Assembly (NCBI GenBank): GCA_963841015.1
Contig: CAWJAX010000005.1
Location: 256,001 to 320,000, forward strand
Source: an uncultured Methanoregulaceae archaeon
GTDB taxonomy: Archaea > Halobacteriota > Methanomicrobia > Methanomicrobiales > Methanospirillaceae
DNA: 64,000 bases
Direction of reading: 5' to 3'
This document shows positions 30,873 through 36,009 of this stretch, one piece after another (within the stretch, counting starts at the first letter, position 1; each line of letters starts with the position of its first letter). A program made the position numbers and the translations under genes. Under the pieces are notes generated by a model. That model did no database searches. It saw only the letters and a program-made list of their open reading frames with translations, and was not told the origin of the DNA.

Positions 30873-31364
30873 CTAAATATAGAGTTCCTGGATTTTTATT
30901 ACTTCAATACTATCCTTTGCGTTTGTGTACAGATCAAGCGGTTCTTTGTTTACTTCTAAAAAGCGGATACCCCAACTGACTTTCGAAAGGAGTTCAGTCG
31001 CCCTATCCTTTTCACCAATAATATATAATGCAGCAGCTAGTGCCTCAACAGATGAAAGAACACAGGGTTTGCCAAAATTTACAGGATTTGCTGCAATTAA
31101 AAAGGGAAGCGCCCGTCGTATTCGCCAGGAACGTACTTTCCCCGTATCTAGCACTACCCATGAGCAATCAAGTACAGTTATTGATTTAACGTACTTATCT
31201 GCCGGTGAAAGTGCCTGCTCTGCAGTGGGATCAAGGAGTAATGTATTTCGTGGTATTTGGGAAATTTTGTTGAATATTTTTAAAAAGCCAGCTTTTTCAA
31301 GTTTTTTTACTGTACACTTCCTGGGGTCGCAACTATTATCCCGGTATGCATACAGTGGCATCAT
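30873..31364 (-). CDS. tsr3: rRNA aminocarboxypropyltransferase Tsr3 (DUF367)
   Basis: CDPRKCT, LSPAD, LDCSW and RALPFLIAANPVNFGKP..LSSVEA. Confidence 0.95.
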   Translation of the reverse strand: MMPLYAYRDNSCDPRKCTVKKLEKAGFLKIFNKISQIPRNTLLLDPTAEQALSPADKYVKSITVLDCSWVVLDTGKVRSWRIRRALPFLIAANPVNFGKPCVLSSVEALAAALYIIGEKDRATELLSKVSWGIRFLEVNKEPLDLYTNAKDSIEVIKIQELYI

Positions 31365-31394
31365 TGATCATCTGTGCGTGCACACACAGTATCA

Positions 31395-32252
31395 ATGTAC
31401 GTACTCTGCAGTCCCTGTGTTCTCAATCCAGCGCTGCGTGCAAAGGGTATCACAAAACCCTCGGATCTCGAGATGTTCGAGCGCACAATAGAACGGTGCA
31501 AAAAATTCAATATCGAAATGCTGCCACTTCCTTGTCCGGAGACGGTATATCTGGGACCTGACAGGAAACCCGGGACTTTTCTCGAAAGACTCAACACGCA
31601 GGAATTCACTCATCTCCTTGATGTGATGGCAAAAGAGGTTCAGGAGATCATCGAATTGCGGGGACCTCCCGCTTTTATGATAGGGGTAAATTCGTCGCCT
31701 ACCTGTGGTGTGACAAGTACCTATTATGGAAGTGATGGGACCACCCCTCCAAAGAAAGCGGGTCGGGGTATGTTTTTAAACCGATTCCCTCAAATCAGGG
31801 CTTTGGACGTTGCGTCATTCTCTCAATATCGCGTTTATCTGGCAGCACCTCTTTTTTCAGAATCGGAACGCGTTTATAATCTGTCGGTTGCCGGGCAATT
31901 GAGAAATAACTTTTTTGAGGTATATCTCCCTCAGGAAGCGGGTGATGATTCAGATACGAGGAACACAGAAGAACAGGTCCGGATCTTTTCTGAAAATCTG
32001 AGAGCTCTTCAAAATGCTGACATAATTGTTGCAATTATCGATGGTGCAGATGCAGATTCGGGGACAGCATGGGAGATGGGGTATGCATACGCAAACGGGA
32101 AAAAGGTAATTGCATTACGAACGGATTTCCGAAGATCCGGCAGGTATGAAAAGGTCAATCTCATGCTCGAAGAATCGTCAACGGTAGTGACCAGTATTGA
32201 GTATCTCCTCGATGCGGTAAAATCGCCCTTAATTATGAAATACGATTCATAG
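31395..32252 (+). CDS. DUF523/TudS-like Fe-S domain fused to a nucleoside 2-deoxyribosyltransferase/N-glycosidase domain
   Basis: N-terminal half has SPC, PCPE, SPTCG and GMF. C-terminal half has YLAAPLF, DSGTAWEMG and NLML. Confidence 0.85.
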   Translation: MYVLCSPCVLNPALRAKGITKPSDLEMFERTIERCKKFNIEMLPLPCPETVYLGPDRKPGTFLERLNTQEFTHLLDVMAKEVQEIIELRGPPAFMIGVNSSPTCGVTSTYYGSDGTTPPKKAGRGMFLNRFPQIRALDVASFSQYRVYLAAPLFSESERVYNLSVAGQLRNNFFEVYLPQEAGDDSDTRNTEEQVRIFSENLRALQNADIIVAIIDGADADSGTAWEMGYAYANGKKVIALRTDFRRSGRYEKVNLMLEESSTVVTSIEYLLDAVKSPLIMKYDS

Positions 32253-32516: not shown

Positions 32517-33488
32517 ATGTCCAACCTTACCGTGGCTATCCTTGCTCCCCCCGATTATGCCAAAGATCTGGGAAAAAAAGGAACGACCAGCGATATTACT
32601 TTCTATAATCTGAAAAAAGGGGATGCAACGGTCACCTTCATTGAGCCGACACGGTATCCGGAAAAGTTATCATCGCTGTTTTATGCAGTATCCATTGCGG
32701 ATCGGGTGGTCCTGGTTGTTGATGAAATTAATGCTACTTTTGGTGAGTGCGTCCTGATGCTCCAGTGCGCAGGAAAATCCAATGGATATCTTATCCTCAA
32801 GAATTATATTTCACCGGATCAGATTGCGCCTCTTCTCAAGGGCACGGTTCTTGAGAATTACGAGGTGATTGAGGAAGATATTGTCGGTCTGCGCGAGAAA
32901 ATGCTTGATATTTCCGTAAAACAGACAGCCCACCAGAAAGCTCATGAATCCGGGGGGAAAGGGGTAGTTCCGGTTGATGCACATTTCAATGTGAAAGGGG
33001 TCGGGGTGGTTGTGCTTGGATTCGTGGCTCAGGGGATAATAAAAAAGCACGATACGCTAAGGATCCTTCCGACAGAAAAAACCGCCCAGATCCGCTCTAT
33101 CCAGAAACATGATGATGATGCTGACAACGCGATCAAAGGTGACAGAGTTGGACTCGCCCTGAAAAATATTGAATCTGAAGACCTTGACCGGGGTTTTGTG
33201 CTTACGAATGATCCAGCAATAAAACATGCCACCACCCTATCGGGAAAAGCCCAGCTTGTGAAATACTGGCCGGCCCCTCTGAAAGAGGGCATGGTGCTCT
33301 ATGCCGGCCACTGGATGCAGTTCCTTCCCACCCGCCTGGAAAAAGTTGTTGTGGATAGTGACTGGAGGATGCCCACCATCATTCTTTCCCTGGAAAAAGC
33401 TCTTATTTACCCCCCTGGTGCCCGTGTCGTGCTCCATTATCTGGAAGGTGGCAAGCTTCGTGTAGTAGGGAGTCTTATTATTTCTTAA
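32517..33488 (+). CDS. SelB/EF-Tu-like protein with degenerate G domain (aSelBL-like)
   Basis: EF-Tu domain II motifs (VDAHFNVKGVGVVVLG, IRSIQKHD, GDRVGLALK, RGFVL); no intact GxxxxGK[ST]. Confidence 0.85.
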   Translation: MSNLTVAILAPPDYAKDLGKKGTTSDITFYNLKKGDATVTFIEPTRYPEKLSSLFYAVSIADRVVLVVDEINATFGECVLMLQCAGKSNGYLILKNYISPDQIAPLLKGTVLENYEVIEEDIVGLREKMLDISVKQTAHQKAHESGGKGVVPVDAHFNVKGVGVVVLGFVAQGIIKKHDTLRILPTEKTAQIRSIQKHDDDADNAIKGDRVGLALKNIESEDLDRGFVLTNDPAIKHATTLSGKAQLVKYWPAPLKEGMVLYAGHWMQFLPTRLEKVVVDSDWRMPTIILSLEKALIYPPGARVVLHYLEGGKLRVVGSLIIS

Positions 33489-33597: not shown

Positions 33598-34170
33598 TTG
33601 ATAGATATGGAGATCTTTGGATGGATTGTACTGGGTGTCATAACCCTTGTGATTATTGGACTGATCATATGGGCTGTCGGCATCTACAACCGTTTCTACA
33701 GCCTGAAAAATTCATCCGAGGCAACCCTCGGACAGATCCGTGTAGCCATGAAAAAACGGCTGGACATGATCGACCAGCTGCTTGGTGCGGTTAAAAGCTA
33801 TGCGAAGTTTGAGAAAGAAACCTTCGAACGTGTTACCGCAATGCGGGCAAGTGTAGCAACTGCCTCTCCGGGTGATCTGAATAAGGTTGAGGCCGAATCC
33901 CGATCGATCTTCGGACGGCTGTTAGCTGTTGCAGAAAATTATCCTGATCTTAAGACATCAACAACGGTAACCAGTCTTATGGACGCGGTAAAAGGAATTG
34001 AGGAAGAAATTGCACGGCAGCGCTATACCTATAACAACATTTCGCAGGAGTTCAACACGATGATGGATACAATTCCTTCCAGTTTCATCGGGCGAATGAT
34101 CGGGCTTATCAAGCTTGAATACCTGCAATTTGAAGAAGCGATCAAAACTCCTCCGAAGATTGAGTTCTAA
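33598..34170 (+). CDS. lemA: LemA family protein
   Basis: N-terminal TM helix, YN, KKRLDMI, AVAENYPDLK and RYTYNN. Confidence 0.92.
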   Translation: MIDMEIFGWIVLGVITLVIIGLIIWAVGIYNRFYSLKNSSEATLGQIRVAMKKRLDMIDQLLGAVKSYAKFEKETFERVTAMRASVATASPGDLNKVEAESRSIFGRLLAVAENYPDLKTSTTVTSLMDAVKGIEEEIARQRYTYNNISQEFNTMMDTIPSSFIGRMIGLIKLEYLQFEEAIKTPPKIEF

Positions 34171-34182
34171 TGGGTAATAGCT

Positions 34183-36009
34183 GTGAGTGAAATAAAACAA
34201 CTGGTCTCACTTTTTATCGCGACTCTGGTCCTTGGCATAATCGGACTGGGTCTCGTCATAGTGATTCCTCCACTTTTCGAAGGCGACCTTGTGGTTGACT
34301 CGTATAACGCTGTCCTGTACGAAAACGGGACCCTGACCGAGCAATATACCTATGATGTTAAAACATCCGGCCAGTACCGCATGCTGTACCGTTCATGGGA
34401 GGCCCCCCTCACCCTTGGCACAAGTTCAAGCCCGTCTGTGCAATTTATTTCGGCAATTCCACCTTCTGGTACTATTGGCTATGCAAAGGACGAGGAGGGT
34501 AATGTGGTTGTTATCGGTGTTTCCGAAGGCAGTCCCTCGAAAGCAACAATCAGAAATCTGGCCGAAACCAACGAAGTAGGAATATTCAGACCAGAGTATT
34601 ACAATCAGGGTAAATACTCCGTTGGATACACCTTCCTCATTCATCCCCCTATCGAATACGATACCACTTCATCGCATCTCAACCTGAAATTCGCTGGGGC
34701 GAGTCACATACCTTACCGGAACGTCAAAATCACTGTCCCTTCAGGAAAGGTCGAACAAATTTATGTATATCCGCCCTCTTTGAAAACCGAAAAGACAGGT
34801 GAAGCATTTGTTATCTCGGGGAGTGTTGCAGAAAATGAAAACCTGGCTGTCGAAATCCTCTCGAATGCCGATGGTTTTAATCAGATTCAGGGATACAGGA
34901 ATAAAGTCGGGAATGTCAGGGAAGCAACAAGCTGGGCTGCTTTCTGGTACAATCTTACGTATTATGGAGCGTATTTCCTGAACTTTTGTGCAAAAATTGC
35001 AGTAATATCAGTCCCCTTCCTTCTCCTCGCTATTTACCACTGGTATGGCAGGGAAAAATCATTCACGGTTCCCGAGTACCTGAGCACGATTCCCAATCCC
35101 GCTATGAAACCATGGCAGGTGAACCTGCTATTCAAAGGCGATGCTCTCGATTTTGATGAGGATGGGTATTACGCTTCGCTACTCGATCTTCACAGGAGAA
35201 AGATCATCTCAATTACTGAAAAAGATGAAGGAAAGGGAATTGAAATCAGAGTACTTTCCGGTGCTACGACGGATCCCTACGAGCAGCGTGTCCTTGGTTT
35301 TGTCGACCTTGTATCAGAAAACAGTGTATTGGATACTTCCAGAATCGAAGCACTGGCTCTTCGTGCAAAAACAAATCCCCTTGCAGAAGAGACAGCATTA
35401 AAATATCAACGCTCACTTAATGATGTAACCCGCAGGGTTGATACGTCCATTATATCTCAGTATATCGTTGATGGACGGGATCTCCTGGTACCTCTCCTGC
35501 TATCAGGCATCGTTTTGTTTGCAATAACCCTGATCTTTGCCTTTATTGCGTCCCTTCAATCATACATTCTTATCCCTGCTGCAGTGCTCTGGGGAGTAGT
35601 TGTAGCCCAGGCAATACTTTCTTTTGCTGCCCCTTCCACGCTTTTCGGACATTGGAAGGATGACCGGTATAAAGAAAAGCTTGAGTGGGATGCCTTCACC
35701 CGCTTCCTTTCTGATATGGCAATGATTCAGAAGTATGCTCCGGCAGATCTGTCGATGTGGGGTGAATGGCTTGTGTATGGAACTGCTCTGGGTGTAGGGG
35801 ATAAAGTAGAGCGGGCAATGAAAGCACTCAACATACGTGTAGCAGAAACAGGTGTCCCTATTGGTGTTATGGGAATGAACACGGCATTCGTTCCCCTTAT
35901 GCACTTCAGCCCACCAAGTCACGGAAAATCAGGAGGTTCTGGTGGTTTTGGTGGAGGAGGATTTGGTGGTGGAGGAGGATTTGGTGGCGGTGGCGCCGGG
36001 GGGAGATGA
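34183..36009 (+). CDS. DUF2207 family membrane protein
   Basis: WDAFTRFLSD..WGEWLVYGTALGVG motif, Gly-rich GGFGGG tail; typical lemA neighbour. Confidence 0.87.
   Translation: MSEIKQLVSLFIATLVLGIIGLGLVIVIPPLFEGDLVVDSYNAVLYENGTLTEQYTYDVKTSGQYRMLYRSWEAPLTLGTSSSPSVQFISAIPPSGTIGYAKDEEGNVVVIGVSEGSPSKATIRNLAETNEVGIFRPEYYNQGKYSVGYTFLIHPPIEYDTTSSHLNLKFAGASHIPYRNVKITVPSGKVEQIYVYPPSLKTEKTGEAFVISGSVAENENLAVEILSNADGFNQIQGYRNKVGNVREATSWAAFWYNLTYYGAYFLNFCAKIAVISVPFLLLAIYHWYGREKSFTVPEYLSTIPNPAMKPWQVNLLFKGDALDFDEDGYYASLLDLHRRKIISITEKDEGKGIEIRVLSGATTDPYEQRVLGFVDLVSENSVLDTSRIEALALRAKTNPLAEETALKYQRSLNDVTRRVDTSIISQYIVDGRDLLVPLLLSGIVLFAITLIFAFIASLQSYILIPAAVLWGVVVAQAILSFAAPSTLFGHWKDDRYKEKLEWDAFTRFLSDMAMIQKYAPADLSMWGEWLVYGTALGVGDKVERAMKALNIRVAETGVPIGVMGMNTAFVPLMHFSPPSHGKSGGSGGFGGGGFGGGGGFGGGGAGGR

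Follow-up and report, generated by a model that had tools for sequence, protein, structure and literature searches.

The fusion gene

The window analysed here is a stretch of 64,000 nucleotides from an uncultured Methanoregulaceae archaeon (assembly GCA_963841015.1, contig CAWJAX010000005.1, positions 256,001 to 320,000 of the forward strand). It carries a gene, present as a single copy in the source genome, whose product is predicted to join a domain with the fold of the thiouracil desulfidase TudS to a domain with the fold of the nucleoside 2'-deoxyribosyltransferases (NDTs), and which is referred to below as the fusion gene. The gene, its two domains and its neighbour tsr3 are listed in Table 1.

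Table 1. Features of the fusion locus (positions are those of the window; aa, amino acids)
Feature	Position	Strand	Remarks
Fusion gene	31395..32252	+	285-aa two-domain protein, stop codon included; stop-free open reading frame and translation
TudS-fold domain, N-terminal, aa 1-140	31395..31814	+	putative [4Fe-4S] ligands C8, C47, C104; also E49, S101, R15, R57
NDT-fold domain, C-terminal, aa 145-275	31827..32219	+	Y148, N201, D221, E227 (nucleophile), N255, M257
tsr3 (16S rRNA aminocarboxypropyltransferase family)	30873..31364	-	divergent neighbour; Pfam and NCBIfam matches
Spacer separating the start codons of the divergent tsr3 and fusion genes	31365..31394	.	30 bp

In an initial annotation, made from the DNA alone, the gene had been read as a TudS-like desulfidase fused to a nucleotide N-glycosidase. 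The observation behind that reading was confirmed, as the open reading frame contains every motif that had been listed: SPC (S6-P7-C8), PCPE (46-49) and SPTCG (101-105) in the N-terminal half, and YLAAPLF (148-154), SGTAWE (222-227) and NLML (255-258) in the C-terminal half. An alternative start is possible at a GTG at 31374, seven codons upstream of the ATG, and the orthologs in loci L017 and L020 have, by our own open reading frame calls, a 7-residue upstream GTG/TTG extension. The ATG at 31395 nevertheless fits as the start, since an MY/MF start motif is contained in 48 of 48 aligned orthologs, 46 of which begin there. The alignment used here and throughout holds 48 sequences, which represent every one of the six families of the order and share 53-76% identity with the window protein. 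Conservation was found to be equal in the two domains, with a mean consensus share of 0.70 for the N-terminal and 0.69 for the C-terminal one. The AlphaFold2 model of the whole protein has a mean predicted local distance difference test (pLDDT) of 91.4 and a predicted template modelling score of 0.85.

The N-terminal domain

It was on structural grounds that the N-terminal domain was assigned to the TudS fold. The AlphaFold model of residues 1-140 (pLDDT 93.8) had TudS 6z93 as its best Foldseek match (E 2.4e-5, probability 1.0), with the next match at E 0.035, and in VIA-align it was superposed on TudS 6Z92 with a Z score of 11.1 and a root-mean-square deviation (rmsd) of 3.5 Å over 132 of 140 residues, the next Z being 5.2. 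According to the accessible parts of PMC10611767 and PMC11417400, the cluster of TudS is held by Cys10, Cys43 and Cys104, its catalytic residues are Glu45, Ser101 and Ser103 together with an arginine equivalent to Arg60 of RudS_KT, Arg17 binds the phosphate of 4-thio-uridine monophosphate (4-thio-UMP), and Tyr18, Pro102 and Tyr110 sandwich the base and sugar. These positions were mapped by motif register from the TudS sequence and the two papers, including Table 1 of PMC11417400. The three cysteines correspond to C8, C47 and C104 of the fusion, each present in 48 of 48 orthologs. Glu45 corresponds to E49 (48/48), Ser101 to S101 (48/48), the RudS_KT arginine to R57 (47/48), Arg17 to R15 (48/48), Pro102 to P102 (48/48) and Tyr110 to Y110, which suggests that the domain would carry a [4Fe-4S] cluster. 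A fourth cysteine, Cys35 (nt 31497-31499), is invariant in all 48 fusions and sits in a helical segment that is missing from the unfused CD3072-like homologs. In Pfam 38.1 the family PF27735 ('2-thiour_desulf_put') is found on 13-19% of the members of the fusion's Atlas clusters. As judged from the model and these motifs, the assignment holds, and the domain appears to be a divergent, CD3072-like branch of the TudS fold.

The C-terminal domain

The C-terminal domain is matched by Pfam Nuc_deoxyrib_tr (PF05014) over aa 147-250 with E 5.1e-25 and 88.3 bits, well above the cut-off of 28.8, as well as by Nuc_deoxyri_tr2 (PF15891; E 8.9e-23, 81.1 bits). Its closest solved relative is 7o62, the NDT of Desulfotalea psychrophila (DpNDT), which was reached by sequence at E 4.7e-16 with 34% identity in a gap-free alignment. 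When residues 142-279 of the whole-protein model were compared with 7o62, a Z of 19.3 and an rmsd of 2.3 Å over 136 residues were obtained. Other NDT structures gave Z 13.3-17.7, among them the nearest bacterial ones at 15.8-17.7, LhPDT at 14.8, TbPDT at 13.8, and LmPDT and LlNDT at 13.3-13.4; the nucleotide hydrolases DNPH1/Rcl and MilB gave Z 13-14.6. In the model, then, the domain is nearest to the NDTs (best Z about 16-19.3), with DNPH1/Rcl and MilB further away. Both domain assignments of the initial annotation were thus upheld by the family matches and fold comparisons. Its labelling of the C-terminal half as Rcl/MilB-type is not the best fit, because those enzymes are structurally more distant and because Asp221, present in 48 of 48 orthologs, stands where DNPH1/Rcl and MilB have what we take to be a phosphate-binding serine.

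In section 3.5 of PMC12372993 the catalytic residues of DpNDT are given as Tyr16, Asp74, Asp94, Glu100, Asn127' and Met129', and the catalytic unit as a dimer. Five of these six are kept in the fusion: Tyr16, Asp94, Glu100 and Asn127' correspond to Y148, D221, E227 and N255, each in 48 of 48 orthologs, and Met129' to M257 in 47 of 48. The Asp that NDTs use at the 5' end of the sugar is therefore present, as D221. A homodimer was also predicted for the fusion protein (score 0.44 against 0.00 for the best control, agreement between runs of at least 89% of contacts, partner pLDDT of at least 85). Among solved homo-pairs, 20 of 30 reached this mark, and among single chains 1 of 23; since NDT dimers are already among the solved structures, this pass may reflect likeness to known dimers and not binding. 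The predicted interface lies wholly within the C-terminal domain (residues 194-198, 201, 215, 219-234 and 255-261), that is, at the catalytic motifs. The NDT clade to which the fusion belongs also occurs fused to HD, NUDIX and methyltransferase domains.

Distribution and origin of the fusion

Orthologs of the fusion were found in 197 of 201 genomes of the class, in 35 of 35 genera and in six families. Across the phylum, of which 301 genomes were sampled, matches that cover both domains were confined to the order of the window, where 46 of 48 are intact. Elsewhere, every listed match takes in a single domain, and the two genes are separated by hundreds of kilobases, G211 and G241 being examples. 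The possibility that the fusion is an assembly artefact, named with the initial annotation, is ruled out by the 197 genomes and by the phylum-wide sample. When proteins were clustered at 50%, the full-length fusion was represented only by P0123, P0125 and P0130, along with the partial P0126. Four shorter proteins that were considered as stand-alone N-terminal domains (P0277, P0311, P0297 and P0314, 174-221 aa) proved to be truncated fusions instead. A stand-alone NDT-like gene is present in 37 of 37 genomes of the Methanosarcinaceae-type family (f7).

In one of the two non-intact cases, G008, only residues 110-278 are matched. In the genus that G008 represents, the gene at the same tsr3-adjacent locus (L024:6048-6611, minus strand) codes for a 188-aa NDT-only protein, with a remnant of the tail of the N-terminal domain and with His at the general-acid position of the NDTs. 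The other case is G006, a complete genome of the family, in which the gene lies in two overlapping pieces with a TAA stop (G006:C1:2163966-2164911) and may be a disrupted copy. From its distribution, its one locus and the equal conservation of its halves it follows that the fusion had a single origin and has since been maintained by selection, and that the desulfidase half has occasionally been lost. The metagenomic representative P0130 (288 aa) has lost the first and third cluster cysteines, with the NDT half intact.

Unfused homologs and their neighbourhoods

The genes around the unfused homologs provide a view of the two domain families that does not depend on the fusion. In Methanoperedenaceae the order at locus L089 is an NDT-like gene (minus strand), a gap of 84 bp, a TudS-like gene (plus strand), an overlapping gene for an M10-like peptidase, an abutting thiI and a thioredoxin gene. 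Within this family, thiI was found within 2 kb of the NDT-like gene in four of eight loci (L089, L029, L140 and L141, not L136-L139). In Methanosarcinaceae-type loci a TtuA-like PP-loop tRNA thiolase gene is followed by DUF7847, a TudS-like gene and a H+-pyrophosphatase gene; this arrangement was seen in five of six loci examined (L026, L028, L114, L119 and L083, not L129). Both domain families are thus connected with tRNA thiolation by evidence apart from the fusion, with a single family behind each association, and the link to thio-modified tRNA nucleotides that had been suggested in the initial annotation gains support. Against NF045597, the CD3072 family, the unfused archaeal TudS-like homologs score 94.6-99 bits, below the cut-off of 130.

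The M10-like gene is itself only weakly similar to matrixins and codes for about 255 aa (L089:4416-5180, L029:5240-5998, L076:4460-5248). In Methanoperedenaceae it separates thiI from the TudS-like or NDT-like gene, and in an ANME-2 genome, the locus of which keeps the pair of TudS-like and M10-like genes, it comes after the TudS-like gene. Two reading frames beside unfused homologs, L029:6569-6973 and L030:5620-6045, were considered as the missing partner domain and rejected, with E values of 0.58 and 1.6.

Thiolation genes and DUF523 paralogs in the order

The source genome encodes thiI (187.8 bits), as do 61 of 61 genomes of the order, so that no correlation was found between loss of the N-terminal domain and loss of thiI. 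It also has a canonical DUF523-DUF1722, or RudS-like, gene of 343 aa and 112 bits (G000 contig C2, L033:919-1950, minus strand). A canonical PF04463 paralog scoring above the cut-off is present in 26 of 61 genomes of the order and was not found in the remaining 35, where the fused gene is still near-universal. The RudS-like protein of the source genome reads SPTSG where TudS reads SPSCG, the third cluster cysteine being replaced by serine.

Proposed function

We propose a bifunctional role for the fusion protein, namely the removal of thiolated pyrimidine nucleosides, with 4-thiouridine and derivatives of it from tRNA turnover as the most likely substrates, a reading to which we give about an even chance of being right. 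On this view the C-terminal domain, acting as a dimer, would attack the N-glycosidic bond, to cleave it or to effect a transfer, by way of a covalent intermediate of the ribosyl group with Glu227. Tyr148 and Asp221 would assist, as would Asn255' and Met257' from the other subunit, and Asn201 (His in many orthologs) would be hydrogen-bonded to the departing base. With thiouracil, which should be a better leaving group, the enzyme may do without a carboxylic general acid. The N-terminal domain would hold its [4Fe-4S] cluster on Cys8, Cys47 and Cys104, with the free iron binding the thiocarbonyl sulfur. A water molecule activated by Glu49 and Ser101 would then swap sulfur for oxygen, yielding uracil (or a uridine compound) and sulfide. 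The analysis itself shows the folds, the conserved residues, the conservation of the fusion and the gene neighbourhoods, from which point on the Fe-S cluster, the substrates, the sequence of steps and any channelling from one domain to the other are what we infer.

A number of observations weigh against this reading, and the first of them concern the N-terminal domain. Its match to Pfam 2-thiour_desulf (PF04463; aa 3-130, profile positions 1-128 of 141, E 2.5e-5) reaches 24.7 bits, or 25.7 in a second scan, and falls below the cut-off of 34.7. Two of the fusion orthologs do reach that cut-off (G046 at 38.6 and G025 at 34.7 bits). The match to NF045597, the 'CD3072 family TudS-related putative desulfidase' of NCBIfam, is likewise below its cut-off of 130 at 57.9 bits (E 9.3e-16). 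No TudS chain was reached by phmmer or by the N-domain family profile in the PDB sequences, in which the profile found just two irrelevant matches (E 0.062 and 1.2). As sequence methods fail to reach TudS, the link to it rests on the fold and the motifs. Among the mapped residues, the second serine of TudS (Ser103) is T103 in the fusion and is variable among the 48 orthologs (T 28, A 10, S 6, V 2, C 2), and the stacking Tyr18 is replaced by A16 (A 46, T 1, V 1).

The second group of objections concerns the glycosidase. The Asp that acts as general acid in NDTs (Asp74 of DpNDT, Asp60 of EfPDT, Asp62 of CtNDT) is Asn201 in the window protein, and the same position in the 48 orthologs is occupied by N in 23, H in 22 and L, C and D in one each. 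With Asn or His in 45 of 48, the general acid of the family is lacking, which weakens the interpretation of the initial annotation. Asn is also found in 10 of 10 unfused archaeal homologs examined; in 27 stand-alone relatives from a wider library the counts are D 12, N 8, C 4, L 2 and H 1. Asp-to-Asn forms of CtNDT, LlNDT and DNPH1 are present in the PDB, according to their titles, as ligand-bound mutants. Such mutants are crippled enzymes, and the glycosidase may therefore be slow, different or inactive. Asn or His at this site may suit a thiolated base, one that departs unprotonated, and it also supports an NDT-like half that only binds nucleosides.

In that latter case the NDT-like half would be a non-catalytic module for nucleoside or nucleotide binding and dimerisation, and would supply or control the desulfidase, in a way similar to the retargeting of TudS by DUF1722 in RudS. 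The missing Asp (47 of 48 orthologs and 10 of 10 unfused archaeal homologs) and a predicted dimer that forms through the C-terminal domain are both consistent with such a module, and RudS provides a precedent for a partner domain that changes the substrate, as described in the accessible part of PMC11417400. We nevertheless hold this to be decidedly unlikely, because 47-48 of 48 orthologs retain the nucleophile Glu together with the other active-site residues Tyr, Asp, Asn and Met, because the domain survives alone with all of those residues where the N-terminal domain was lost, and because it occurs as a stand-alone gene in all 37 genomes of f7 and in 40 of 41 Methanoperedenaceae genomes. At the other extreme, the protein could be an ordinary nucleoside 2'-deoxyribosyltransferase for deoxynucleoside salvage which happens to carry an unrelated Fe-S domain. 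Its nearest solved relatives are indeed active NDTs, with 7o62 at the head of them (PMC12372993), but the general-acid Asp is absent and NDT-like genes are linked to thiI and to TudS-like genes, and we regard such a role as very improbable.

The third group of objections to a bifunctional enzyme for thiolated pyrimidine nucleosides comes from the independence of its halves. Co-occurrence is not strict outside the order: of 41 Methanoperedenaceae genomes, 40 have the NDT-like gene and 2 the TudS-like one. The genus without the N-terminal domain keeps thiI and has a PF04463 match in 0 of 5 genomes; since the N-terminal domain was lost in one genus, the desulfidase half is dispensable. In addition, Asp221 suggests a nucleoside and the phosphate binder Arg15 a nucleotide, and the halves may therefore not share one substrate.

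These points lend themselves to a different explanation, in which two independent housecleaning activities sit on one chain: the TudS-like half would convert 4-thio-UMP to UMP, the NDT-like half would act on other nucleosides, modified or deoxy, and the fusion would serve co-expression only, with no intermediate passed. The preferred substrate of TudS is 4-thio-UMP, the phosphate of which is bound by Arg17 (PMC10611767), and all 48 orthologs have the corresponding R15; Asp221 points to nucleosides as substrates of the NDT half (PMC12372993). It was also seen above that this NDT clade has other fusion partners (HD, NUDIX and methyltransferase domains), that the two families occur independently outside the order, and that the N-terminal domain can be lost with the NDT half intact. 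On the other hand, the NDT-like gene lies beside thiI in four of eight Methanoperedenaceae loci and beside the TudS-like gene in L089, and the fusion has been kept across six families with both halves equally conserved. We consider two unconnected activities rather unlikely, and the bifunctional clearing of thiolated nucleosides remains our preferred reading.

The last objections bear on what such an enzyme would be for. Uracil phosphoribosyltransferase (UPRTase, PF14681) was not found in the source genome, which is 94% complete, in a search that was positive in 14 of 14 reference genomes used as a control. Across the order it scores above the cut-off in 14 of 61 genomes, one of these a fragment, and all in two of the six families. 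Uracil salvage is therefore doubtful as the purpose in this organism, and the recycling of uracil put forward in the initial annotation becomes doubtful with it. For the enzyme proposed here, detoxification and sulfur recovery are more likely as the physiological role than uracil salvage. Taken as a whole, the interpretation given in the initial annotation is partly supported.

The tsr3 neighbour and adjacent genes

The protein encoded by tsr3 matches Ribo_biogen_C with E 4.4e-43 and NF002621 with 209.9 bits against a cut-off of 152. By tblastn, tsr3 was found as the divergent neighbour in 23 of 23 related loci, or 24 of 24 with the window included, and the aligned start-to-start spacer measures 28-35 bp in 18 of 22 full-length loci. 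A spacer of 30 bp is too short to hold two separate archaeal promoters. The head-to-head arrangement that had been pointed out in the initial annotation is thus universal in the order. As to substrate it says little, since the adjacency is absent where the domains are separate: tsr3 was not seen beside unfused homologs in the loci examined.

Tsr3 releases 5'-methylthioadenosine from S-adenosylmethionine. It could therefore be supposed that the function of the fusion is tied to Tsr3, the protein cleaving 5'-methylthioadenosine and processing its sulfur-bearing part, and the divergent tsr3 in 24 of 24 loci and the narrow range of spacer lengths would agree with this. We find it scarcely credible, as the chemistry of TudS needs a thiocarbonyl and the Glu/Ser set for that chemistry is conserved, as unfused homologs do not adjoin tsr3, and as a PNP_UDP_1 phosphorylase of the source genome (107.4 bits) could handle methylthioadenosine. 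Moreover, an adjacency that is confined to one order counts as one inherited event.

Setting a link to methylthioadenosine aside and returning to the clearing of thiolated nucleosides, the observations allow a broader proposal. The archaeal clade of NDT-fold proteins with Asn or His at the general-acid site might be a thionucleoside-specific N-ribosidase, which, whether fused to the TudS-like desulfidase or encoded beside it and thiI, would form the first dedicated archaeal route of 4-thiouridine catabolism, with cleavage without acid catalysis, capture of the sulfur on the [4Fe-4S] cluster and, in this order, co-regulation with tsr3 through the spacer of about 30 bp. We offer this as a tentative extension, possible but on the whole doubtful.

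Further along the window, a gene at 32517-33488 (plus strand) codes for a 323-aa protein whose Pfam match is to EF-Tu domain 2 only; matches to SelB and EF-1-alpha are partial and sub-threshold, and no G-domain match was found in the Pfam and NCBIfam scans. Downstream of it, at 33598-36009 (plus strand), lies a pair of LemA and DUF2207 membrane-protein genes. The pair is also found near the fusion gene in L022, and DUF2207 in L013.

Novelty and significance

A 2021 review (PMC8584467) described research on the breakdown of tRNA sulfur modifications as being 'in its infancy', and, as far as the accessible parts of PMC10611767 and PMC11417400 go, only bacterial TudS and RudS have been studied so far. 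The fusion gene would supply an archaeal case, and one that is nearly universal in one methanogen order, as well as a new partner domain for the TudS fold. It would also give a natural role to NDT-fold proteins, which are otherwise known mainly as biocatalysts. For enzymology, the Asn or His in place of the general acid poses a testable question about the leaving group, and the thiI-linked gene clusters provide a rationale for the choice of substrates.

In the initial annotation it was stated that no characterised protein with this architecture was known, and this agrees with the literature, as no paper joining both families was found in a full-text search, the scope of which did not extend to supplements and subscription journals. 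The word 'deoxyribosyltransferase' does not occur in the TudS and RudS papers (PMC10611767, PMC11417400). Database pipelines already label such proteins 'nucleoside 2-deoxyribosyltransferase/predicted secreted protein' or '/YbbK (DUF523 family)'.

Comparison with known systems

The N-terminal domain of the fusion has, by its model, the same fold as TudS, the [4Fe-4S] desulfidase of thiouracil and 4-thio-UMP (6Z92, 6Z93, 6Z96; PF04463), and shares with it the three Cys ligands, the catalytic Glu, Ser101, Pro102, Arg17 and the second Arg. It differs from TudS in its low identity (18-21%), its sub-gathering PF04463 score, the variable Ser103 position and the change of Tyr18 to Ala, and it has in addition the invariant Cys35 and a partner domain of the NDT fold. 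Among sequence families its best match is the CD3072 family (NF045597), yet this match is below the cut-off, and the family itself is uncharacterised and labelled 'putative'.

The nearest precedent for the architecture is RudS, the TudS-DUF1722 protein that erases 4-thiouridine from tRNA. In RudS, too, a TudS-type domain has a fused partner, which sets the specificity of the protein (PMC11417400). According to the accessible part of the same paper, 58.9% of the TudS family are single-domain proteins and 40.1% are fused to DUF1722. Unlike RudS, the fusion described here has no Pfam match to DUF1722, and an NDT-fold enzyme domain follows instead.

As for the C-terminal domain, it is like the type II NDTs (DpNDT 7O62, EfPDT 7M5H, CtNDT 8RH3) in its fold and in the Tyr, Asp94, Glu100 and NLM motif; a dimer through the catalytic motifs is predicted for it as well, which may reflect the solved NDT dimers. 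It departs from them in the replacement of the general-acid Asp74 by Asn or His, in its desulfidase-like partner, in its archaeal origin and in the linkage of its unfused homologs to thiI. With the nucleotide N-glycosidases DNPH1/Rcl and MilB/BcmB it shares the fold of the superfamily and the position of the Glu nucleophile, at a greater structural distance than that which separates it from the NDTs.

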